The notes under the pieces: model-generated
Database searches by the model: none
What the model was told of the DNA's origin: nothing
What the model saw: only the letters and a program-made list of their open reading frames with translations
Assembly: GCF_053078305.1 (NCBI RefSeq)
Contig: NZ_CP166879.1
Direction: 5' to 3' (one strand)
DNA: 64,000 nucleotides
Part shown: in pieces, positions 30,101 through 48,123 of the stretch
Layout of the letters: each line of letters starts with the position of its first letter
How positions within the stretch are numbered: position 1 is the stretch's first letter
Made by a program: the position numbers and the translations under genes

Positions 30101-33100
30101 TGTATTGTCTGCGCTTCCAGCCCCTGACCGGTATTCTGCGTGTGGCGATTGATAAACTGCAGGGCGTTCAGCGTAATGGCGGAACCACTGCGAATCAGAC
30201 CAGAGACGTTGTCCACAACGCCCCGTACACTGTTGAGCAACATGTCGCCCACAGACTGTATTTGTCCGTGGCTGTTCTGCAGACCTCCCGTATGCAGACG
30301 GAGTTCACCTTCACTGACCAGCCGGCCCCCCTCACGGTTATCCAGCGAGGTGGTGCTCAGGTCAGCTGTCGTTTTCGCCCCCACGGTCCCGCCCCGGTTA
30401 TCCATTGCTCCGGTACTGACAGTCAGTTCCTGCAGGCTGTTCAGCGTACCGCGTCTGTTATCCAGCGTCTGGCCTGCGGTATTAATGCTGATACCCCTCC
30501 CCTGAATAAGACCGGACTGATTGTTCAGCGCCTGGCTGTTCCAGCCGAGCAGACCGTTTGCCACCATCTGACCGGATGTATTGTTAACCACGCCTGCAGT
30601 CAGGGACAGAGCATCTCCCGACAAAAGCACACCGGCAGTGCTGTCCAGTGTGCCGGCATTCAGCGTCATCGGACCCTGACTGATAACCCCGCCCCGGTCA
30701 CCACTATTACGGTTACTCAGTGTGTCAGCACGGAGATTCAGCGATGCACCGCTCTGTATCAGGCCGCCGGCATCGTTGATGATATCCGTCGAGGAAAGTG
30801 TCAGTGACTGCTGTGCCACCAGTCTGCCGCCCTGATTATCAAACCGTGTGACATCCAGCCTGCTGTTACCGTTGCTGACCACCGTCCCCTGCTGATTTTC
30901 CAGCACACTCAGGTGCGTATTCAGGTCCCCGCCGGCGGCAAGCGCCCCTTCCTGATTACTGACATCACCACCACTCAGCAACATATCCGTCCCGGCCTTC
31001 AGTGCGCCTTTCTGGTTCATCAGCGTACCTGACGATATCTGTAATGACGTCTGACTCCCCAGCACGCCCTGACGGTTATCGAGCGTTCCGGCGTTCAGGG
31101 TCATATCCTTCTGACCCGCCATAAATCCCTGCTGGTTATTCAGCATACCGGCCCGCACTGTCAGGGTACCGGCGCTGCTGATACCACCCCGTGTTTTCGT
31201 GTTCCGGTTACTGAGTACCCCGTCCTGTACATCCAGCGTCATGTCACTGCCGGACTGAATCAGACCATCATCAGAGACCAGTTCGCTGCCTGACACAGAC
31301 AGCGTTTTCTGTGAAAGCAGTCTGCCGGACGTATTATCCAGCGCACCATCCAGCGTCACAGACAGCCCGTCAGCCACCACCGTACCCTGGTGGTTATTCA
31401 GATTCCCTGCCGAAATATCCAGCCTGCCGGCGGACTCCATTCGTCCCTCAGTATTGCTGACAGCCTGCTGTGTTTTTATCCTGCCCGTTCCGGCAGCAGC
31501 TGAAATCAGTCCGTTGTCGTTATTCAGCGCCTGTGTATTAATCAGGATGTCACGGCTGGCAAGCAGACGTCCCTGCTGGTTATCCACGGCGCCGGTTGTC
31601 CTCACCTGCAGACTGCCTGACTGCGCCGCCTGCACTTTCCCCCTGCGATTATCAAGGCTCAGTGCATCCAGACGCACCGCGCCATTTGCCGCAAACAGCC
31701 CTTCCCGGTTATCCACGCTTCCCGGCAGACTCAGCGAAAAATCCCCTGTTCCCGTCTGAGTCAGACTGCCTTTACGATTTGACAGGCTTTGTGCCGATAT
31801 CTGCAGTGTGTCGGCATTTATCGTGCCACCATTATTGCTGAAGTGCCCGACAGTCCGGGCGGAAAGCGTACCGGCACTCAGTTGCGCATTCTGTGTGGAC
31901 AGATTTCCACTGGTTGCATCCAGCTCAGTATGTTGTCCCTGTATCCGGCTGTTGCTTAAATCCAGCCCCTGCCCCTTCAGTTGCATGTCCCCACCGGACA
32001 GAACCTGTCCGTGTGCCGCCAGTTCGCCGGTGGTACTGACAGTCAGGTTGCCCGCTGCCGCCAGACGTCCGTCATCTTTCACCCCGGCGGCCAGCAGACT
32101 CCGCTCACCGCCGGTCAGACGCGCTGTCTGAATCCGGGTGTTGCGACGTGATGCCACAGAGCCTGTATGGGTGAAGACACCATCACTCTGTATCTGCGTA
32201 TCCTGCCCCGCATAAACAGAACCACTGTTATGCAGCTCCCGGGTTGTCGCCAGATGCACATCCGTTTTCGCACTGATACTGCCACTGTTTTCAATACGTC
32301 CGTCAGCCGTCAGGGTAACCGCCCCTGCCTGTGCACCAATATGACCGGCGTTACGAACACCCACCCCCGTTTCCGTACCGACAAGGCGAATTTTTCCGGC
32401 ATACATTCCGCCAAGACTGGCCACATCCAGTGCCATCTGAGGCTGTGAAGAGACATCACCGGTCTTTTTCTCAATCTGCCCGTGCGCGATATCCACATTG
32501 TTACGTCCTGTGGTCACTTTCAGATCCTGCGCCCAGATACCCGCATTAATCTTCACAGACCGGGCAATGATATCGGTATAATCCGTGCGCGAGGCATCCA
32601 TCCCTTTGCCCGTAACCTGAATCTCACCACGTTCAACACTGAATCCGGTCAGACTGCCGTTTTTCATCTGCGGCTGCCCCGTGGTCAGCGTGGCCCGGTT
32701 CGCATTAATAAAACCGCACCCGTCGCAACTGATGCCGGCCGGGTTCGCAATCACCACCTGCGCCTTTTTACCGGCAACCTCAACAAAACCGTTCAACTGG
32801 CTGGGATTGCGACTGTTCACTTCATTAAGAATGATTCTGGCCTCTCCCTTAGCCAGCCACGGGTTCCCGGCCACCATGCCACCCAGTTGAGTCTGCACAT
32901 TGTTATGGGCATTATTCAGAATGACGCCCTGGTTACCGACGTCGAACTGGCTGTATGCGTTATGTGAAACCCCGCCGGCAGAAGGCGTCTGAATATTCAC
33001 CTGCGGAATGCCGCTGGCCGTCTGCGTAATCGTGGGCTGCTGATACCCTGGTGCGCCATGGTCTGCGACAATGCCTGCAGCACTGACAGAATGCACCATC

Positions 33101-37942: not shown

Positions 37943-38291
37943 TATTTTATCTCTGTTGAATTTGGTTAAGTCGGTGCAGACTCATCAACACAAGTACGGT
38001 TCGATGCAAACAGCTGTGACTGGCAATATGAAAGGAATGATGAATCAGTCAGGATGACAAAGTGCCGTCTGACCGGAGGGGACACAGGAAGATTCACGGA
38101 GGGACCAGCACTAGGGAACAGCGCCACATCCCGGGTGGTACTGCTTTGATGCGCCCGGTGACACAAAGCCCGGATTGTTCCAGACATCCTGAATCAAACG
38201 CCCCAGATCAGGGGCGTCGAAATATGCCTCTCTGGCCATTATATTCCGGCGTACAGGTAGCAGGTCAGAAGTGACAATGCGTCACCTAACG

Positions 38292-38858
38292 TTAAAAGTC
38301 ACTACACCCAAGATGACGTTCAACAGCACCATGCGATTCAATGTAAGCCCGGGCTGTCTGTTCCAGTACACCAGGCTCAGCGTTGTATGTGTTAGCTGCA
38401 TCAAATACCAACGACAACACTTCAGGATACACAACCAGATGTGTAATGGAGTTATCTTCACTCAATACTTTTCCCCACGCCTGCTCAATCAGATTTCTTA
38501 GAACCACCACCTCACGACTCTTACACCAGACATCGTTATTAAGTAGCAGCACCATAAGATAAGGAGTGGTATCGTTAGCCACAGCTTCCCTACTCCAGAG
38601 ATAATATAAAGGGGTGGGCTCAACAGATTTATCTTTACGTCTCTTGCACTGCAAATATTCAGAAATGAGTCTATGCAGTTCACCAGTAAAATCAGCCATC
38701 AGAGAGGGAATGGCCTTATTAATACCCTGCCCTGGTATTAATTTAAATTGTAATAATTTAATTTCAGGATGTGTAGCTGCAGCCCGATACAGAGTTGCAA
38801 GGACACACTTTTGCCAGAGGGCGTTACAGGAAAGCTTAACATTTGATTCTGTATACAT
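38292..38858 (-). CDS. Hypothetical protein, 188 aa
   Basis: ORF only. Confidence 0.35.
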   Translation of the reverse strand: MYTESNVKLSCNALWQKCVLATLYRAAATHPEIKLLQFKLIPGQGINKAIPSLMADFTGELHRLISEYLQCKRRKDKSVEPTPLYYLWSREAVANDTTPYLMVLLLNNDVWCKSREVVVLRNLIEQAWGKVLSEDNSITHLVVYPEVLSLVFDAANTYNAEPGVLEQTARAYIESHGAVERHLGCSDF

Positions 38859-38885
38859 AATAAATCACCTTACAGTTACAACAGG

Positions 38886-39128
38886 TCAAAAACCGCTGTA
38901 GCCAGAGTTACGCTGGCCTGATGCTTTAGTGTCGAGCTTCGTCAGATAATCCAGACGTGCCAATAAGCGCTGATACTGCTCAGGGAAATCAGGAGCATTA
39001 ATATCCTGGATGTCACGTCCATTAGCAGGGAAATGAACAATGCAGCCCCCTGGATTAACTATGCAGAAATCATCCTGAGGCACTGATAAATACGGAGAGG
39101 ACTCTCGCGTATGGTTGATTGACACCAC
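38886..39128 (-). CDS. Hypothetical protein, 80 aa
   Basis: ORF only. Confidence 0.25.
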   Translation of the reverse strand: MVSINHTRESSPYLSVPQDDFCIVNPGGCIVHFPANGRDIQDINAPDFPEQYQRLLARLDYLTKLDTKASGQRNSGYSGF

Positions 39129-39329
39129 AGTGCGAATTCGGCGAATGCGAGATCACGGTACGATTCCGCACCACACTACCAATCAATACCCCGGGTTTTA
39201 TTCAGGTAAGCAGGACTGCGGATATCCGGTGTCGCGCCTTTGTGTCACGAACGGGGTGGGTGCGAAACACCAGATAAAATACAGGTTGGCAATACCTCTG
39301 AACGCCCTGAGCAGGTCGGGCATTTCGGA

Positions 39330-39755
39330 TTAAGTACTCGCACCTCCGCAGTCCTCAAACAAGTCTGGCTGGTAGCTGTAAACAGACTTCGTACATACCG
39401 CTCTGCAATAAATCCCCGTACCACAGGCCTCACAGAACTTCTTCCCATGAAAAAACTGCTCACACATCACACAATGCCACTCCAGCACGACCGGTAATGG
39501 CGATAAAAACATCGCCATATCCTCAATGTAAGGGTGGGACTTCTCCGGATTCAGCACCACACAGTCCGCCTTCTGTTGCTCACTCAGGGCATGTAAATCA
39601 TGCTCAAACCACGCCCCCTGAGCATCTGTCTGCAGAATCAACCGGCCATGGCAGGAAAGGCAGAAACACTGCCGGATATTTCTGCTGAGCGCAGAGTCGG
39701 CACTGATAATGTGCTCACCCGGCGTGATCCCCAGCCCCGTTTTTATACCGTTCAT
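39330..39755 (-). CDS. Cys-rich (zinc-ribbon-like) hypothetical protein, 141 aa; paralogue of the next gene
   Basis: CxxC pairs and shared WFEH motif with the upstream ORF; 4-bp overlap with it. Confidence 0.45.
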   Translation of the reverse strand: MNGIKTGLGITPGEHIISADSALSRNIRQCFCLSCHGRLILQTDAQGAWFEHDLHALSEQQKADCVVLNPEKSHPYIEDMAMFLSPLPVVLEWHCVMCEQFFHGKKFCEACGTGIYCRAVCTKSVYSYQPDLFEDCGGAST

Positions 39756-40135
39756 TCTGCTCCCCCCTCCTCACTGAAGCGCCCGGTCTGGCAGTGTGTG
39801 CAGTACTGCTCCCCATAATAATCGTGGTGACATTGCCTGCAGTGCCAGCTGGCTTTACGTACTACGGGTAAGGCATCCGGGACGAATTGCTGCAGACGTT
39901 TAATCAACCGTATTTCTCTGCGTTCCGGCCTGACATAAGGGCACTCATGACCGTGCTCCGTCAGCCCTTCGTCAGCGTGTTCAAACCAGGGCCGTTCAGT
40001 GTCGTATTGCGGGTGGTATCTGAGTGCACTGCCGCAAAGGTGGCAGGTGTAGCTATCGTAAGGTGCAGTCTGTGCGGTACGGGCACCGGTCAGACGTCCG
40101 TTGCCATCAAGTGCGAGAAAAGATTTTGCGTACAT
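39752..40135 (-). CDS. Cys-rich (zinc-ribbon-like) hypothetical protein, 127 aa
   Basis: CxxC ... CxxC pairs (CHLC, CRQC, CTHC) and WFEH motif. Confidence 0.45.
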   Translation of the reverse strand: MYAKSFLALDGNGRLTGARTAQTAPYDSYTCHLCGSALRYHPQYDTERPWFEHADEGLTEHGHECPYVRPERREIRLIKRLQQFVPDALPVVRKASWHCRQCHHDYYGEQYCTHCQTGRFSEEGGAE

Positions 40136-40507
40136 AGTATATGTTCCTCAGCCGCCAGACGACACGCAGGCAACAGCCGTCCCGGTACGGGCAGCGTGGT
40201 CAGGGTGTGAATGGCGGTTCAGTTAAAATCTGGACTGGAGTTTGGGTAAAGCAGGCTGGTTGCTGTTACAGCACTGTGGTTGTCACACAATGGCCCACTG
40301 ACGTAAAAAACAGTCAGTAAGCAGAGATGGAGATTGGGGGATGTGCTGTATCGGTTGCCGGAAGGAATGGTAAAGAATGTGTCATGGTTAAATCTCCGTA
40401 TGGTTCATACGGAATGGCCACGCCGTAAAAAATGCGCAGAGCCGCTGAAGTGGCCGCCGGAACCGACAGCAAAGATTAGCGCCAGCCCGTACTTGTCGTT
40501 CAGGGGC

Positions 40508-41107
40508 TTACACCAGAGCACATATCCCCGGCAGGGGGCTGTCCAGTCGTGGTCGACCACGGTTACTTTTTTCAGGAAGCCCGCTGCATTTCAGGATGAT
40601 GCCACATTCTTTCTGTTCCCGTTTGGCCAGGTAGCTGATGGCATAGCGTAAATCATTCACCGCTTTGTGATCTGAATAGTGAATGACGTGGTTAATGTTT
40701 ACCGGATAATTTTTATTAAACCGGCACCAGTGGTAGTAACCATTACCATCGGTAACCCGCCTCCAGATATCTCCCATCAATCTGGATACCAGATACGAAC
40801 TCCTGTGGATCTGACCGTTCAGATAGCCCACAAAATGAATGTGAAGCCCTTTACGTTCTGTATATTCCATCACCCAGGCATACCCGACCAGTTTCTCTCC
40901 CACCTCGTTAATCAGTTGCAGCATCTCCGCGCACATGGCGTACCTGCAGGCGCATCCGTAGCTGAATGTGTTTTTTCGGTAAGCAAAATCCATTCTGAAC
41001 GGTAACAGCTTCGAATAGACCCCGAATAATGAATCCAGATGCTGGTTAAAGTGTGTCAGGAGCTGGGGAGCCATTTCGTAAGCGGGATTGGTGTTATAAG
41101 TTTGCAT
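40508..41107 (-). CDS. Inovirus Gp2-like / HUH-motif Rep-like protein, 199 aa
   Basis: HUH-type motif LHIHFVGY and downstream tyrosines (RYAISYLAK); recalled similarity to the Gp2 family proteins common in E. coli islands. Confidence 0.45.
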   Translation of the reverse strand: MQTYNTNPAYEMAPQLLTHFNQHLDSLFGVYSKLLPFRMDFAYRKNTFSYGCACRYAMCAEMLQLINEVGEKLVGYAWVMEYTERKGLHIHFVGYLNGQIHRSSYLVSRLMGDIWRRVTDGNGYYHWCRFNKNYPVNINHVIHYSDHKAVNDLRYAISYLAKREQKECGIILKCSGLPEKSNRGRPRLDSPLPGICALV

Positions 41108-41338
41108 GTTTCTTCCTCGTGTTCTGTAACACAGGAAGAAGCGCTGGCGTAATTTTTGAAGAAAACGTTATCACACGAAGACGTGCAAGTTCACAACTCC
41201 CCGGGCGCCACAGAGAAAGTGGGAGCACACCCGGGTATCAGAACCATACAGAGAACGGCATACGTGACTGTCAATCACAGCGCAGATAATATCTGATATG
41301 ATGTCATTGTGACGACTGTACTTCATCAGAAACATTTA

Positions 41339-41692
41339 TCAGGTAACATATTTCCAGACTGAAGCGGGAACACGATCGTAAAGTTTGTTCATGGTCAGTT
41401 CTGCCAGCCGGTGATCGACCGCAGAGTTGAAGGCTTCCATCTCCGCTGGAGTAAGCTTATAACGCGTGTGGGAAATCACTTTTTCCAGTGTCTCCCGGGA
41501 TGAACAACGACGGAACTGATACAGCCAGTCTTCTTTGGTCTTAACTTCCATTATCCTCTCGTTATTTTGTGCTGTGATTAACGTTAACATAATACCGTCA
41601 GAATAACGTATTCTGACGTCATCCCGGAAGTCTTTCCACTTTCCTGTCTCTCCGGTAATAAAACATTTTAAATGCTGAAGGCATAACGCCAT
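41339..41692 (-). CDS. Hypothetical protein, 117 aa (or 71 aa from MEVKTKEDW)
   Basis: ORF only. Confidence 0.3.
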   Translation of the reverse strand: MALCLQHLKCFITGETGKWKDFRDDVRIRYSDGIMLTLITAQNNERIMEVKTKEDWLYQFRRCSSRETLEKVISHTRYKLTPAEMEAFNSAVDHRLAELTMNKLYDRVPASVWKYVT

Positions 41693-42502
41693 AACCAGAT
41701 ATTACAAGTAACGTGGCGTTACACGTGTTAATGCATTACAGAAGTAACAGAGACAATCAGATAGTAAACAACACTCCGGAAGACTGTTTAATGGCATAGG
41801 TATACTTTTTACGATCACAATATTATATCACTACCAAAATTCATCAGGTGAACTGCAAAAGCAAAACATTAACAGTTCTCCCTCAACCACCGTTATCCAC
41901 ACTATTGACACTGACGATTCATACTCTTATTTAGCCAGAATAGCCTCCACACAACAGGCATTACTTAACAAAGTACATTACAGTCAGTGTGTGTACATGA
42001 CAGATTTATATTCAGGTGTTACGAGATTACATTACAGCAGAGAGAGTTAAGGACAGAGTTACAAGTACTACTACAGAGAATATCTCTGTACAGATACTTC
42101 TATGAGCATATCTTTATGAGAGATCCGTCTACAGGATTGGGTTACAAGGTGGAATTACAGAATTACAGGGTTCATTTACATAACCATACTTCTATAAATA
42201 ATACTAATTAACCTTAATTATTTTTTAATAGTACATGAACTGCCTGTAGCTGTAACGACAAATCACCCAAAATGAAAAATACTGGTTATCACGGTTCAGA
42301 GAACTCGTATAAGTACCTCCCCCCTGAGCAATGCTTCATTTTCTGTGGTTCTATGTGATAGAGTTATGCTGAGTACAGTGGCAGTAACCCTGCTTTCCAC
42401 CACTCAATGACAAAACACACAAAAAATTAATTATATGAATTAACAGTGTTTTTTATGGAATGTTATGCATATCAACCAATATGATTAACAGAAAACTTCA
42501 TC

Positions 42503-43294
42503 ATGACAACACGTATAACTTTCAATATGACCAGTGATGAGACGCTGCGAATTGTGGATGAGTACTGTCATACCCACAAACTTTCGCGCTCTAAGGTAAT
42601 CGACGCATTACTCAGCGCCACAGCACCTGTCCTTAACGATATTAACTGTTATTATCAACTTGCAGGCAAACTGCAGTCACGCTTATTAAATGGAGTGTAT
42701 CAACGGGATCTTCCTCACAAACGCAATGTCGTCAGTGCAGAGAAGTATTGTCTGGAAATCTGGGAAAACAAACTTTTCACCAAAAGAATCCTGGAGTTTG
42801 ACAGTTCAAATGGTGTTCTATACGCGCTGAAACATAAAAGACACTATCGCCGGGATAAGATGATTGGACGGGTTGAAAGCCGGCGTATCAAAGACATTTG
42901 CGAATACCAGATGCAACTGTCCGGGGAGAAGGCAAAATATGCCTGTTTTATTTATATTGAAAGAACAATATACAATCACGATAATCCATCCGGTGAAACA
43001 CCTGTAAAAGCGGCTGTTGGTAATGCAGTCATCCTGCTGGCAAAAGACGTGATATATGACGAGTACTTTTTTGATCTGCGGCAGTCATTTTTCGTGAGCG
43101 TTAAAGATTTGATGGCCTCTGGCGCAAAAGGTATTCCGGAGACACAGAAATATCCGGACGTTTATTGCTGGATCCCGCTTTTCTCCATAAATTCCGGCGT
43201 GGTCATTACCCCGGTCTATAAAATTGATCCCCGGAAACCCGTAACGGTAAAAAAACCGGATCAGATCACTGTTGTTTGTAATTACAGAGAATAA
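42503..43294 (+). CDS. Hypothetical protein, 263 aa, low-GC
   Basis: Long ORF preceded by a very AT-rich region carrying TTACAG-type repeats; no motif recognised. Confidence 0.5.
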   Translation: MTTRITFNMTSDETLRIVDEYCHTHKLSRSKVIDALLSATAPVLNDINCYYQLAGKLQSRLLNGVYQRDLPHKRNVVSAEKYCLEIWENKLFTKRILEFDSSNGVLYALKHKRHYRRDKMIGRVESRRIKDICEYQMQLSGEKAKYACFIYIERTIYNHDNPSGETPVKAAVGNAVILLAKDVIYDEYFFDLRQSFFVSVKDLMASGAKGIPETQKYPDVYCWIPLFSINSGVVITPVYKIDPRKPVTVKKPDQITVVCNYRE

Positions 43295-43676
43295 TTTCAG
43301 TCTTCTCCGTTCACCGCAACAGTGTTTACCTCTGCTTTATCTTCCTTTCAGTAAATACAAACCACAGCTCTGGCAGGTACAGGGCGTGGTTTATCTCCGA
43401 TACTCCCCTGCGCAGTAATAATCATCACTGAAAATACTGATTCCGTCACGGCAAAACGCCATCCCATATTCCGGCAACACAAAATCATCTTCCGTTTATA
43501 CCGGCTTCACTGACAAAACAGACAACCTGTATTGCCTGTACACAACAGTTTCTCTCCTGGCAGGAATATTCCTCAACTTTTTTACGTTTCTCCCCGGTTG
43601 TTATGCCGGTGAAGGTGGTGCGTCGTTTTCATCACCAACGCCGGTTGAGATTAACAACATCCGGAGGAACATTTTC

Positions 43677-43883
43677 ATGAAGACCCCAGTTTCGCTGATG
43701 GATGACCAGATGGTCGACATGGCGTTTATCACTCAACTGACCGGCTTAACCGATAAGTGGTTTTATAAGCTCATCAAAGATGGTGCCTTTCCGGCCCCCA
43801 TCAAACTCGGCCGCAGCTCCCGATGGCTGAAAAGTGAAGTGGAAGCCTGGTTGCAGGCGCGTATTGCACAATCCCGTCCGTAA
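43677..43883 (+). CDS. alpA: AlpA-family prophage transcriptional regulator, 68 aa
   Basis: Characteristic AlpA sequence (LTGLTDKWFYKLIKDGAFPAPIKLGRSSRWLKSEVEAWL). Confidence 0.8.
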   Translation: MKTPVSLMDDQMVDMAFITQLTGLTDKWFYKLIKDGAFPAPIKLGRSSRWLKSEVEAWLQARIAQSRP

Positions 43884-43968
43884 TTACTGACCGTTATCCG
43901 TTCAACCGCAGCGAATACACTATCCGGCCTCCGGAGGCATTCTGCTGCGTGCTAAAGGAGAGAATATT

Positions 43969-44541
43969 ATGCAAAAACTTGAAAACCGGTGTGATCTGCT
44001 GCTAATTCAGCATCAGAAATGGATGGCAAGTGTAACCCGGTTTATTGTCGCTCATGGAATGGGCTCTCCGCATCTTCATGGTTATCACCGCCTGACCCTG
44101 GCTCACTTTTTTCTACCGGAAAAAGGCACCATCATCTCAGTGGCACCACAGGGACTCTATCAGGTCGTCAACCCGGGAACGCCACCGTTCATTCCTGCCA
44201 TTCAGGAAGGGTTAATGACCAGCATTCAGACCCATGAAATCATGCTGCTTACGCATTTTAATCTGGGCGGCGTTTTACTCAGTGAGCTACATCGTCTGGG
44301 CGAAAGCCGGCTGGCAAACAGGCTGAACAGTCTGCTCCGGCGTTTCGAAGATCGCGATCTCTACCACACGCTGATATGGCTGTGCTGGTATGATCTGATG
44401 TGTGCCCACTCCATGCAGCCCTGGACTGAAGAGTTAAAGCATAAATCACACACAGAGCTTGAAAGCTGGGCTGTGGCGCGCAAACGGGAAAAGCGCGAGC
44501 TTGAACTGATGATTGACGAGTATCTGTTATACGCCTGTTGA
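43969..44541 (+). CDS. Hypothetical protein, 190 aa
   Basis: ORF following alpA; no motif recognised. Confidence 0.4.
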   Translation: MQKLENRCDLLLIQHQKWMASVTRFIVAHGMGSPHLHGYHRLTLAHFFLPEKGTIISVAPQGLYQVVNPGTPPFIPAIQEGLMTSIQTHEIMLLTHFNLGGVLLSELHRLGESRLANRLNSLLRRFEDRDLYHTLIWLCWYDLMCAHSMQPWTEELKHKSHTELESWAVARKREKRELELMIDEYLLYAC

Positions 44542-46121
44542 TTCATAACGCTCCCGGGATTCCTTCCTCATCGTTGCACACAACCGGACGGCTATCTGTG
44601 GCAGTCCGCCAAATGACCCTCGCCGCATTTCGTTCTGCTGAAAACGGTACGTAGCCAGTGATACCGGAATTTCCGGAGAGGGTCGCAGGTATATTGCTTC
44701 TGTGCAATTGATGCTTATTTACATTGGATGTGGTTATTTCTGCATCCAATGCTATCGGAAAGAGATCAACCAGCAAATGGTTCCTCAAATCGTATTGATA
44801 TTTACCCGGTGCATTGAGCACCTCCATCTGACACTCCGTTCCCGCATCAAACGGCTGAACCGGAAAACGATTTGCTTTTCACGCTCCGTGGAAATTCACG
44901 AAAAAGTTATTGGGTCATTCATCGAAAAACACATGTTCTGCTGACTGGAGCCATCACCCGGAAATATACGTCAACTGAACAATAACGATTTTTTCTTTAT
45001 GGGATCCCATACACTTTCCCATACCCCTCTGAAAATCAGTCATCAACTCACCAACACATCTTCTGAAATCTGTATTAAACTTATTGCTTAAATAGATGAT
45101 ATAACACATCTTCCATTGCACGGAATCAGCGAAAACTGTCATTCTGGCAATCTTAACAAGATCATTTATCGGTTAATTTTATCAGTAAACAATGGAATAT
45201 CACACTGATAAAATGAACATTCAGGGTAAGATGATAAAATTCACATAAAAAATGCTGAAGATTATTTATTTCATGCAGATAAACGATAAAATACAAGAGA
45301 GTATATTTTTCAGTGTAAGAGTCAATCGTTCATCTCCACTGACGATCACGGTCAGCACATAAACAAAGTGAGTCCTCCTGCTTAGTCATTGCGTATCAGA
45401 AACTAAAAAACAAAAGATTCTGTAAACAACGTGACATTTTTTATGACATTTCCCGAATACAGATATATCAACAAACAGTAGTCAGCGTTGAATTAATAAG
45501 TTTTACAGGGCTATACGTATCTTATAAAACCACTCAACGACCATCATCACCTGACTATTTAGCGGGAGTATCATCTGTATAAATCCCTAAATAATAACAC
45601 CTGTTATTAAAATAAGAATGCTGTCAGCAGTAAATTATTAACATAACACCTGTCCACTCTATCTGTTCTTCTAACTCAACCGGCATCGAAAATATTGCCT
45701 GATTAGTGCATCATAGCCTTCTTTTTTCTTTCCCGACCATCAAAACAAATACAACATTTACAACCACACAATAAAACAAAACTAAAACATAAGATTAACA
45801 ACACCAATCAACAGGAAAACACTGAATATTGAGGTGCCCTGTAACCTGGAGAGCGCATACGGCGCATGTGATCAACACAGCCCATTCTTTTCTGTCATCC
45901 CCCAAATGCAGAACAAACAAGCATAACCTAATGAATATAAAATAAAATATTATTTTTCACCATCATAAAAACATCAATGTATCTTTATATAAAAACACTG
46001 ACAACATGACATAAACATTTAAAAACATAAACAAATCACAACAAAAACATTTGATAATCACTTAGTGACAAAATAAAATTGAGACGATTTTGTTATAAGA
46101 GAGGCGCCATGGAGTGAGATA

Positions 46122-47141
46122 ATGAATAACGAACAGATGCTTATCAAATGCAAAGATCCCCGTAAATGTCGGTTTTATGCTGAATATCTGAATCACAAAT
46201 ACCCCAATGAATTCCCTCAGTTTGCGCCTGACAACCCACAAAACTGTATCAGAAATGTTAATGCGTTTTTAAAAGAAAAGTATTGTAATACTTCAAACAA
46301 TTCTTTTGGTGTTTTTGGTTCGACTGCAGAAGAAGCTCTCAGCAAAGAAATTAATGAACTTGAAATTATTGCAGGGCAGGCAATACTGCCTGAAGAGAGT
46401 TTTCTCTGGTTGAAAACTGACGAACTTGCGACTTTCTTTACCTGGACTACTATTTATCTGTCGAAGGAAGACCATACAAATTTCCCGGAAATAAACCATA
46501 ATTCATCAGGGATAAAAAACGGAATTGAAGTCAGAAAAAGACGAACAGTTACCGATGAAACGTTAAATACTTACAAAAAAAGTAACCTTCCGGATAATCC
46601 ATCATCCCATAACGAACGAATAAAAGTAATCATTTTATATTTTGATTCCTGTCATTCTTTAATTAATAAAAATGCAAAAAGCATATACCTCGAGGAACTC
46701 AGGCAGACGTGGCTTAAAAATAAAAGCGCTTGTCAAAAGTTTAAGTGGCTCCTTCCTGACGATGATGAAATGTGTCAGTGGTTCTGGACAAGACTGAAAC
46801 AAAAACAGGATGAAACACATCCGGTACATAACCCGGTGACCCGGTGGTTCATACCATCTTCAACGAAAGAATATTATCTTGCCTCTCTCGTCGCCTTTGC
46901 TTTATGGAAAGAGGCACCTGATACCATTGAACTGTTCAGAACACGCATAAATCATGCCTGGCATCAAAAAAAACAAAAAGACAAATATCGGAATGATGGT
47001 AAAAAGGCTATTAATATACATATAAGAAGCAATGCGAAAGAAATGCTTGATGAACTCAGAACTGTTTACGGTCTGAGAACAGGAGAGTTTTTTGAAATGC
47101 TGATTACAGAAAAATATCTTGAACACAAGCGAAGGAAGTAA
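46122..47141 (+). CDS. Hypothetical protein, 339 aa, strongly AT-rich (Lys/Asn-rich)
   Basis: Long ORF after a noncoding AT-rich stretch of about 1.1 kb; foreign composition. Confidence 0.5.
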   Translation: MNNEQMLIKCKDPRKCRFYAEYLNHKYPNEFPQFAPDNPQNCIRNVNAFLKEKYCNTSNNSFGVFGSTAEEALSKEINELEIIAGQAILPEESFLWLKTDELATFFTWTTIYLSKEDHTNFPEINHNSSGIKNGIEVRKRRTVTDETLNTYKKSNLPDNPSSHNERIKVIILYFDSCHSLINKNAKSIYLEELRQTWLKNKSACQKFKWLLPDDDEMCQWFWTRLKQKQDETHPVHNPVTRWFIPSSTKEYYLASLVAFALWKEAPDTIELFRTRINHAWHQKKQKDKYRNDGKKAINIHIRSNAKEMLDELRTVYGLRTGEFFEMLITEKYLEHKRRK

Positions 47142-47250
47142 TTCATTACCTGTTACATTCTAAATAATCTCAGACAGATATTATCTCCGTGAATCCCCCG
47201 CCACCTTTCCGGTGCGCGGGGTTTTGTCTTTTTTCACCGGGAATACATGT

Positions 47251-48123
47251 ATGAATCCGTCTGATGCCATTGAGGCAATTGAAAAACCGCTCTCCTCCCT
47301 GCCTTACTCACTTTCCCGTCACATCCTGGAACATCTGCGCAAACTCACCAGCCACGAACCCGTGATTGGCATTATGGGGAAAAGCGGGGCCGGTAAATCC
47401 TCACTCTGTAATGCACTGTTTCAGGGGGAGGTCACCCCGGTCAGTGATGTTCACGCCGGCACCCGGGAAGTGCGGCGCTTCCGTCTGAGTGGCCATGGTC
47501 ACAACATGGTTATCACTGACCTGCCCGGGGTGGGTGAGAGCCGGGACAGGGATGCAGAGTATGAAGCCCTGTACCGTGACATTCTGCCTGAACTTGACCT
47601 GGTGCTGTGGCTGATTAAAGCCGATGACCGTGCCATGTCTGTGGATGAGTATTTCTGGCGACACATCCTGCACCAGGGACATCAGCAGGTGCTGTTTGTG
47701 GTGACACAGGCCGACAAAACGGAGCCCTGCCATGAATGGGATATGGCCGGTATTCAGCCTTCTCCCGCACAGGCACAGAATATTCGCGAAAAAACGGAGG
47801 CGGTATTCCGTCTGTTCCGGCCCGTACATCCGGTTGTGGCCGTATCGGCCCGCACCGGCTGGGAACTGGATACGCTGGTCAGTGCGCTCATGACAGCGCT
47901 TCCCGACCATGCCGCCAGTCCCCTGATGACCCGCCTGCAGGACGAGCTGCGCACGGAATCTGTCCGCTCTCAGGCCCGTGAACAGTTTACCGGTGCGGTG
48001 GACCGGATATTTGACACGGCGGAGAGCGTCTGTGTTGCCTCTGTTGCCCGTACGGTTCTGCGTGCCGTCCGTGACACGGTGGTCTCTGTTGCCCGCGCTG
48101 TATGGAACTGGATTTTCTTCTGA
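47251..48123 (+). CDS. yeeP: YeeP/YkfA/YfjP-family GTPase (50S ribosome-binding GTPase-like), about 290 aa
   Basis: P-loop GKSGAGKSSL, DLPG motif; conserved position upstream of agn43 in CP4-44-like modules. Start set at the first in-frame ATG with a plausible context. Confidence 0.7.
   Translation: MNPSDAIEAIEKPLSSLPYSLSRHILEHLRKLTSHEPVIGIMGKSGAGKSSLCNALFQGEVTPVSDVHAGTREVRRFRLSGHGHNMVITDLPGVGESRDRDAEYEALYRDILPELDLVLWLIKADDRAMSVDEYFWRHILHQGHQQVLFVVTQADKTEPCHEWDMAGIQPSPAQAQNIREKTEAVFRLFRPVHPVVAVSARTGWELDTLVSALMTALPDHAASPLMTRLQDELRTESVRSQAREQFTGAVDRIFDTAESVCVASVARTVLRAVRDTVVSVARAVWNWIFF

Follow-up and report, generated by a model that had tools for sequence, protein, structure and literature searches.

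The 950-bp intergenic spacer at 41552-42502 of a 64,000-nucleotide stretch of Escherichia coli DNA (NCBI RefSeq assembly GCF_053078305.1, contig NZ_CP166879.1; hereafter the window) carries a cluster of directly oriented TTACA-type repeats. Its proximal part is a short tandem repeat whose unit number differs among strains. The cluster is tentatively best explained as a variable-number tandem repeat (VNTR), generated by replication slippage, that supplies the -35 element and the upstream part of a predicted promoter. This promoter would drive an operon encoding a ribbon-helix-helix (RHH) protein of the YagM family and AlpA, and the repeat would tune its transcription. Several observations favor this reading. 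The motif is enriched and strand-biased, relatives of the window show a 13-bp period, and alleles differ in unit number. The last unit forms the predicted -35 element, and an invariant block follows the array directly. The array occurs only in the hha-containing E. coli version of the surrounding island module, with no phage record and two doubtful plasmid records. Finally, the region lies within an island segment reported to be repressed by H-NS/Hha (PMC6480617).

Features of the spacer are as follows.
41893-41901, plus strand: perfect match to the DnaA-box consensus, TTATCCACA, without variation among seven aligned E. coli alleles
41978, 42027, 42032, 42059, 42072, 42089 and 42130, plus strand: dispersed, degenerate TTACAG/TACAG copies
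42142-42187, plus strand: promoter-proximal tandem repeat (VNTR), defined from sequence and allele comparison
42142-42154: repeat unit TTACAAGGTGGAA
42155-42162: repeat unit TTACAGAA
42163-42175: repeat unit TTACAGGGTTCAT
42176-42187: repeat unit TTACATAACCAT
42175-42202, plus strand: best sigma-70-like match of the spacer, 10/12 consensus positions (prediction)
42186-42215, plus strand: invariant block ATACTTCTATAAATAATACTAATTAACCTT, directly 3' of the repeat
41987-42211, plus strand: 74-aa open reading frame with a GTG start that spans the repeat; not a gene

Enrichment of the TTACA motif

The original prediction, made from the sequence of the window, described at least eight copies of TTACAG, TTACAA or TACAG within about 250 bp, several of them in tandem. 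All of the positions that it named are present, and the repeats are directly oriented and partly tandem. TTACA[GA] occurs at 41978, 42032, 42059, 42142, 42155 and 42163, TACAG at 42072, 42089 and 42130, and TTACA at 42027 and 42176; the tandem AATTACAGAATTACAGG lies at 42153-42169. Compared with 5000 dinucleotide-preserving shuffles of 41940-42200, the motif density is far above expectation. On the plus strand, TTACA is observed 8 times versus 1.61 expected (P<2e-4), and TTACA[GA] 6 times versus 0.71. This enrichment is independent of the prior choice of motif, since the commonest 5-mer attains 8 copies in only 0.06% of the shuffles. Elsewhere in the window, TTACA reaches at most 3 copies per 260 bp on either strand, and the only denser 5-mer cluster is a poly-A tract. 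A CCTGC cluster at about 31396-31650 (8 copies per 260 bp) ties with TTACA and is the sole non-homopolymer 5-mer cluster that dense. Within the intergenic region, TTACA occurs 11 times in the forward and once in the reverse orientation.

The array nature of the cluster is evident only through comparison with other strains. On the window alone, Tandem Repeats Finder reports only GAATTACA x 2.1 (period 8), and a matrix of the repeat unit has two strong matches, both 13-mers. The 74-aa open reading frame across the repeat was considered as a coding explanation and rejected, as the original prediction had anticipated. It has no family match, and its frame is broken by strain-specific array indels of 8, 12 and 13 bp.

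A hypervariable proximal repeat

The spacer was aligned from 7 alleles, and the array was extracted from 17 (the window and 16 others). In most lineages, the unit is 13 bp long with the consensus TTACAnGGTAGAA; in strain 2013C-3033, Tandem Repeats Finder reports a period of 13 and 5.7 copies. In the window's lineage, an 8-bp derivative, TTACAGAA, is itself repeated. Arrays of the 13-bp type contain 2 to 9 TTACA-led units, counting the final one. Unit numbers in individual strains are listed below, first for TTACA-led units and then for copies of TTACAGAA.
T2: 2 intact TTACA-led units and one with a TTATA core
GmM062: 4 TTACA-led units
746 and PEC240: 5 TTACA-led units each
536 and clone D i14: 6 TTACA-led units each
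DA33133: 8 TTACA-led units
2013C-3033 and JNEC-KY176: 9 TTACA-led units each
300709: 0 copies of TTACAGAA
Window and GPEC1176: 1 copy each
CFS3246: 2 copies
M217: 3 copies
S1-IVC-02-A: 5 copies

M217 is separated from the window by 3 substitutions per 450-bp flank (<1%), yet by two repeat units. The other alleles that differ in the number of TTACAGAA copies are near-identical to the window on at least one flank. At least 14 length classes are found among a spread sample of 57 full-length matches. Spacing between cores is 8, 12 or 13 bp, or 26 bp where one core has mutated, and the further variants include 12-bp units and units with a mutated core. Strain 536 also has a GGTAGA x3 microsatellite.

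The array is the least conserved stretch of the spacer in the 7-allele alignment, and two of its features are constant. At least 2 units are present in every allele examined, and the last unit stands at a constant distance from the invariant 30-bp block in all alleles. Among the 13-mers, conservation is moderate and spread across the unit (positions 1-5, 7, 9 and 12), beyond the TTACA core. Conservation over the whole 13-mer is the pattern expected of a young duplication.

Predicted promoter and proposed mechanism

The predicted promoter comprises a -35 element TTTACA (42175-42180), a 16-nt spacer and a -10 element AATAAT (42197-42202), and is directed toward the YagM-family gene. Its -35-like TTTACA is formed by the last repeat unit. 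The block ATACTTCTATAAATAATACTAATTAACCTT, with 30 invariant columns, is the longest such run in the intergenic alignment of seven alleles that otherwise differ by 10-20%. Thus, a hypervariable array abuts a strongly constrained AT-rich block. An invariant block with a variable tract upstream fits a core promoter, which is a prediction from the alignment and the consensus match.

Under the favored reading, replication slippage and unequal exchange would build the hypervariable short tandem repeat, and the invariant 30-bp block would be the core promoter. The repeat would then span roughly -35 to -90, the zone that may be contacted by the RNA polymerase alpha subunit, upstream activators and H-NS/Hha. 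Because a variable repeat would occupy this zone, gain or loss of units would change the upstream region in length, AT content and helical phase, and thereby may tune or switch transcription of the RHH-alpA operon. Such a mechanism would not need a dedicated repeat-binding protein, nor would the array be a replication origin.

Several points weigh against this reading. The promoter is a consensus match and a prediction, and promoter-like sites are just as frequent in the region as expected from shuffles. Another such site is present at 42407-42434, and a leader of 300 nt lies between the predicted start and the ATG. Cross-genus alignment leaves the homologous -10 AT-rich block ambiguous. In addition, the copy-number differences among strains show polymorphism, not high-frequency switching.

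Regarding the leader, its predicted structure (42208-42510) has a fold z-score of -1.17, which is not significant, and an Rfam scan of 38000-48000 (E<=1) returned no RNA family. A 28-aa leader open reading frame was rejected, since it has no family match and its ATG is ACG in other alleles. Just upstream of the YagM-family start codon, at 42462-42490, lies the element GTTATGCA...AATATGATTAACA.

If repeat number sets RHH/AlpA expression, the array would offer a simple, heritable way for the island to behave differently between strains and between cells, and would be a rare example of a repeat-based switch in E. coli. Even without function, it would be a highly polymorphic marker, usable for typing.

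Distal copies and evolution of the spacer

Upstream of the array, the dispersed TTACAG/TACAG copies (41964-42135) are found in all alleles. Look-alikes of about 20 nt of a double unit occur at 41964, 42018 and 42141, and ATACTTCTAT occurs twice, at 42094 and 42186. A footprint-like excess of conservation over the dispersed copies (0.949 vs 0.856) was rejected because it vanished when gap columns were removed. The motif columns then score 0.949 versus 0.936 for their neighbors (P~0.3, with 30% of circular shifts scoring as well). The dispersed copies look like an older, decayed round of the same duplication. Three further TTACA copies, at 41702-41736, are not conserved in other alleles and are probably due to chance. 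A 14-bp tandem duplication (ATACTTCTATGAGC / ATATCTTTATGAGA) lies at 42094-42121 in the window, T2 and L023 alleles, and most others are without it.

The spacer diverges far faster than the adjacent gene. Between strains, it is 79-90% identical, versus 94-99% at third codon positions of the YagM-family gene. Against clone D i14, the window shows 98.9% identity at the third codon positions of this gene, whereas the leader is 90%, the distal-repeat part 83% and the hha-proximal part 79% identical. The two flanks of the array have often diverged to different degrees; the window and CFS3246 differ by 25 substitutions upstream of it versus 1 downstream. This discordance indicates that the spacer is mosaic and suggests recombination junctions at or near the repeat. 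Since the spacer is both mosaic and diverged, its overall conservation is no evidence for function.

The island module and its relatives

The region belongs to a genomic island of mosaic make-up and of the CP4/pathogenicity-island type. The module around the cluster comprises the following features.
39330-40135, minus strand: two DUF7828 zinc-ribbon genes (family scans and RefSeq annotation)
40508-41107, minus strand: YagK/YfjJ (inovirus Gp2-like) gene, 199 aa (RefSeq annotation, sub-cut-off Pfam matches, motifs)
41339-41551, minus strand: Hha paralogue, 70 aa, transcribed divergently from the YagM-family gene, with the 950-bp spacer in between
41552-42502: AT-rich spacer, 950 bp, 36% GC
42503-43294, plus strand: YagM-family gene, 263 aa
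43677-43883, plus strand: alpA, 68 aa, Phage_AlpA / HTH_17 family, downstream of the YagM-family gene
43969-44541, plus strand: 190-aa gene

The same gene order is found in strains 536, clone D i14, 2013C-3033 and others. The spacer is carried by 747 of 5426 complete E. coli genomes (~14%, one in seven) at 74-100% identity, and its interior has no annotation in the RefSeq records listed. A 2.1-kb segment around the cluster has matches in 2544 RefSeq complete-genome records. Strain GPEC1176 is 100% identical over this segment, except for an insertion of the insertion sequence (IS) IS2 in GPEC1176. Insertions of IS2, IS3 and IS5 recur in and around the module across strains (L001 10761-11989, L002 4280-5508, matches H2-H15), and the YagM-family gene of strain 300709 is split by an insertion element. 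Neighbors in the island include iha, IS elements, a GTPase gene, DUF905/DUF932 genes and the genes for Ag43 and IrmA; besides the latter two and Hha paralogues, the island backbone holds toxin-antitoxin genes.

Island-borne hha paralogues have been linked to the flu-yeeR-irmA cluster, which is repressed by H-NS/Hha (PMC6480617), and the Hha paralogue of the window is of the kind treated in that study. In several lineages the hha paralogue has another 5' end and an early stop, and is annotated as a 49-aa, not a 70-aa, Hha/YmoA protein (L004, L005, L007 and L008, at 2306-2455). Just upstream of the hha start, the minus strand at 41596-41618 contains a perfect 10-bp inverted repeat (CGTCAGAATA/TATTCTGACG) followed by a T-rich tail; a 5-bp deletion shortens this inverted repeat in other alleles. 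Further along the window, a second small tandem repeat, ACATAAACATTTAAAA (16 bp x 2.8, 46009-46052), lies in a very AT-rich 1.2-kb region upstream of a 339-aa gene (46122-47141). The gene at the corresponding position in strain 300709 is annotated as 'replication regulatory protein RepB'. An AAACA-rich stretch occurs at 45760-45900.

The 263-aa gene was first taken for an orphan, which does not hold. Its product belongs to the YagM family (Pfam PF27701), shares 25% identity with K-12 YagM, and has about 37 cluster representatives (E<=0.001) in a library of 1.8 billion proteins. Its N-terminus (M.KRITF...TL..ID.YC...SRS.VIS.LL) is ribbon-helix-helix-like. Searched against solved structures, the YagM-family profile has CopG as its top match, with residues 1-39 in register, at an E-value of 0.47 that is non-significant alone. 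An AlphaFold model built from a 19-sequence alignment has a mean pLDDT of 78.5, versus 35 from the single sequence. The model resembles RHH proteins, not winged-helix Rep proteins. Based on these predictions, the 263-aa YagM-family protein is likely an RHH protein that would bind DNA, which would give the uncharacterised YagM family a likely DNA-binding role.

YagM-family homologues with 45-56% identity occur in Citrobacter, Hafnia, Cedecea, Klebsiella oxytoca, Enterobacter and Pectobacterium and on one metagenome contig; a search for related loci with a narrower alignment returned 6 loci. In the homologues from other genera (including P0010 and the Citrobacter gene), the RHH strand reads RITFN or RITFS. 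At the loci with gene calls, those of Citrobacter and the metagenome contig, the YagM-family gene diverges directly from the alpA/Gp2-like pair, without hha, and on the metagenome contig it stands beside an integrase gene. With this placement, it is positioned like a regulator of an integrative element's control region. The Citrobacter AlpA is 79% identical with an almost unchanged helix-turn-helix, and the Gp2-like protein of a related island is 38% identical.

The islands of these six other genera and K-12 CP4-6 have no TTACA cluster, with at most 2 copies per 200 bp. All of these array-free islands carry Gp2-like genes, so the recurrence of the array beside such genes in other genomes, which had been proposed as a check, is absent from this set. 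By sequence comparison, then, only the hha-containing version of the module found in E. coli has the array. Such confinement weighs against a conserved cognate site of the RHH protein or AlpA, and also against an origin that travels with the Gp2-like gene. What the E. coli modules and those of other genera have in common is an element, GTTATGCA...ATGATTAACA, just before the start codon, and a leader motif, CTGGTTATC. Besides this leader motif, GTTATGCA...AATATGATTAACA is the sole upstream element kept between the E. coli version and those of Citrobacter, Hafnia, Klebsiella and Pectobacterium.

None of 50,697 phage records matches the region. Two matches were found among 72,556 plasmid records, one a 1-Mb record and the other CP088535.1, a circular record of 41,067 bp. 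Both look like chromosomal or island DNA. CP088535.1 was deposited as a non-mobilizable plasmid, with no replicon typed. It encodes a tyrosine integrase, Hha, the Gp2-like protein, zinc-ribbon proteins, cbeA-yeeT-yeeS and an autotransporter; it has no annotated yagM-like gene, and its spacer match is next to an IS3. The record may represent an island excised as a circle, or else an artefact of assembly. A scan of viral contigs returned 0 matches to the specific unit pattern, and a generic pattern (TTACA-N8 x4) returned more than 100 unrelated repeats of 13-bp period. No relevant report of the unit sequences was found in searchable papers.

Alternative explanations

An operator array, as put forward in the original prediction, is unlikely but the strongest of the alternatives. 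Here, the TTACAG units would bind an island protein, either the RHH protein in YagM-family autoregulation or an AlpA/Xis-type protein, and copy number would set promoter occupancy. RHH repressors commonly bind tandem sub-sites in short direct-repeat arrays that overlap their own promoter, such as the 7-bp omega heptads and the 8-bp MetJ boxes. The gene encoded directly downstream of the array, in the putatively regulated operon, carries an RHH domain. Moreover, all repeats point the same way, the array covers the predicted -35, and its position between divergent regulator genes is typical of operators. The proposal is weakened by the absence of the array from islands with a near-identical RHH strand and AlpA helix-turn-helix. 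The modules of Citrobacter, Hafnia, Cedecea, Klebsiella, Enterobacter and Pectobacterium have an identical or almost identical RHH strand, and the Citrobacter AlpA has nearly the same helix-turn-helix, all without a TTACA cluster. These modules share GTTATGCA...ATGATTAACA near the start codon instead, which, from its conservation, makes a better candidate conserved operator of the RHH protein than the TTACAG array does. A core spacing of 8, 12 or 13 bp is also unfit for a fixed cooperative lattice, and the dispersed copies show no extra conservation.

AlpA of the window is of the small HTH_17/excisionase type. Pseudomonas aeruginosa AlpA recognises a single 6-bp element between -35 and -10 (PMC9371919). 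It was rejected as an analogue because it is a much larger protein with DNA-contact residues at 128-142 and a single 6-bp site. An Xis/AlpA-type array for a recombination directionality factor would be expected beside an integrase gene or attachment site, and the surroundings do not fit this. No tRNA gene is present in the window, and GPEC1176 has no intact integrase closer than about 40 kb, with only a fragment at about 11 kb. Resemblances to LexA, OmpR, CpxR and ArcA sites were considered and dropped because the orientation or period (10-11 bp) of those sites does not fit.

Next in plausibility, and also unlikely, is a minisatellite without function, in which slippage in AT-rich, H-NS-silenced island DNA would have no effect on expression or replication. 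The extreme polymorphism in copy number and unit length is in keeping with it, as are the lack of conservation outside one lineage of the module and the lack of excess conservation at motif columns. So are the divergence of the spacer, far above that of third codon positions in the adjacent gene, and the other small tandem duplications nearby (the 14-bp duplication at 42094-42121 and GGTAGA x3 in strain 536). However, every allele examined keeps at least 2 units, and the last unit is always the same distance from the invariant block. Changes directly upstream of a -35 element usually alter promoter strength, which makes complete neutrality unlikely if the promoter is real.

A slippage-driven switch, in which gain or loss of an 8- or 13-bp unit would turn the RHH-alpA operon up or down, is rather doubtful. 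If true, functions of the island as a whole would come under control that is both stochastic and heritable; examples are AlpA-mediated excision and de-silencing of the neighboring Ag43/IrmA cluster. In E. coli, such contingency loci are considered rare.

Least probable, and very improbable, is a relic or active origin; the original prediction had raised a relic one. In this reading, the repeats, the DnaA box at 41893 and an AT-rich block would serve the Gp2-like HUH protein or another initiator after excision of the island. The Gp2-like protein has HUH (LHIHF) and tyrosine (YAISYLAK) motifs in its translation, with Pfam scores below curated cut-offs. The perfect DnaA box, unchanged across the seven aligned alleles, precedes the repeats by 85-250 bp, and an AT-rich block follows them. 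Short iterons of 6-11 bp are known in the origins of P4, SaPI/PICI and pMV158, and the circular record CP088535.1 holds an integrase and part of the module. The original prediction placed the repeats between a HUH Rep-like gene and the 263-aa gene and alpA; these flanks are right, but the Hha paralogue (41339-41551) intervenes on the Gp2-like side. Against an origin, the Gp2-like gene is separated from the array by hha, at a distance of 1 kb, and is transcribed away from it, and in other genera the Gp2-like gene adjoins the control region, yet without a TTACA array. The module has no primase-helicase or Rep_3-type initiator, and the adjacent gene encodes an RHH protein, not a winged-helix Rep. 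The DnaA box itself is weakly significant (2 in the window vs 0.45 expected). With neither spacing nor copy number fixed, no adjacent initiator of a known type, absence from six genera and K-12 CP4-6, and no phage or convincing plasmid match, a relic origin is poorly supported. The array fails most of the defining features of iteron origins.

Comparison with known systems

Iteron origins of plasmids and phage satellites, such as those of the pSC101/P1 type, the P4 ori/crr octamers, SaPI/PICI ori and the pMV158 RepB direct repeats, also combine direct repeats with a nearby AT-rich stretch and a DnaA box. Like the satellites, the window's island is an integrative element with a Rep-like HUH gene and alpA. 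Unlike in these systems, no cognate initiator is adjacent, and the hypervariable units are spaced irregularly. In other genera, the Gp2-like gene is not accompanied by the array, which also has no phage or convincing plasmid record.

RHH operator and centromere arrays (the omega heptads of pSM19035, ParG/parH, ParR/parC, CopG and the MetJ boxes) are resembled in layout only. As in those arrays, an RHH gene lies downstream of direct repeats that overlap a (predicted) promoter on a mobile element. However, the spacing is not fixed, and orthologous modules that share the recognition strand lack the array. There is no partition ATPase, and the RHH domain is fused to a 200-aa domain.

VNTR loci used in E. 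coli multiple-locus VNTR analysis are likewise short tandem repeats in horizontally acquired DNA with many length alleles. The present locus differs in being found in only ~14% of complete genomes and in having unit sequences without a report in searchable papers.

Contingency loci with promoter repeats include Haemophilus influenzae hmw1A/hmw2A, preceded by 7-bp repeats, and Neisseria meningitidis nadA, preceded by a TAAA tract. The array shares with them short head-to-tail units just upstream of a promoter, predicted here, and a copy number that varies among close strains while the adjoining core promoter, also predicted, is constant. In contrast, the units here are longer (8 and 13 bp) and imperfect, the host is E. 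coli, and the downstream genes encode island regulators rather than surface proteins. The variation here is polymorphism among strains, known from their sequences. Taken by analogy, the array appears to behave like promoter-associated simple-sequence repeats, as a VNTR upstream of a predicted promoter.

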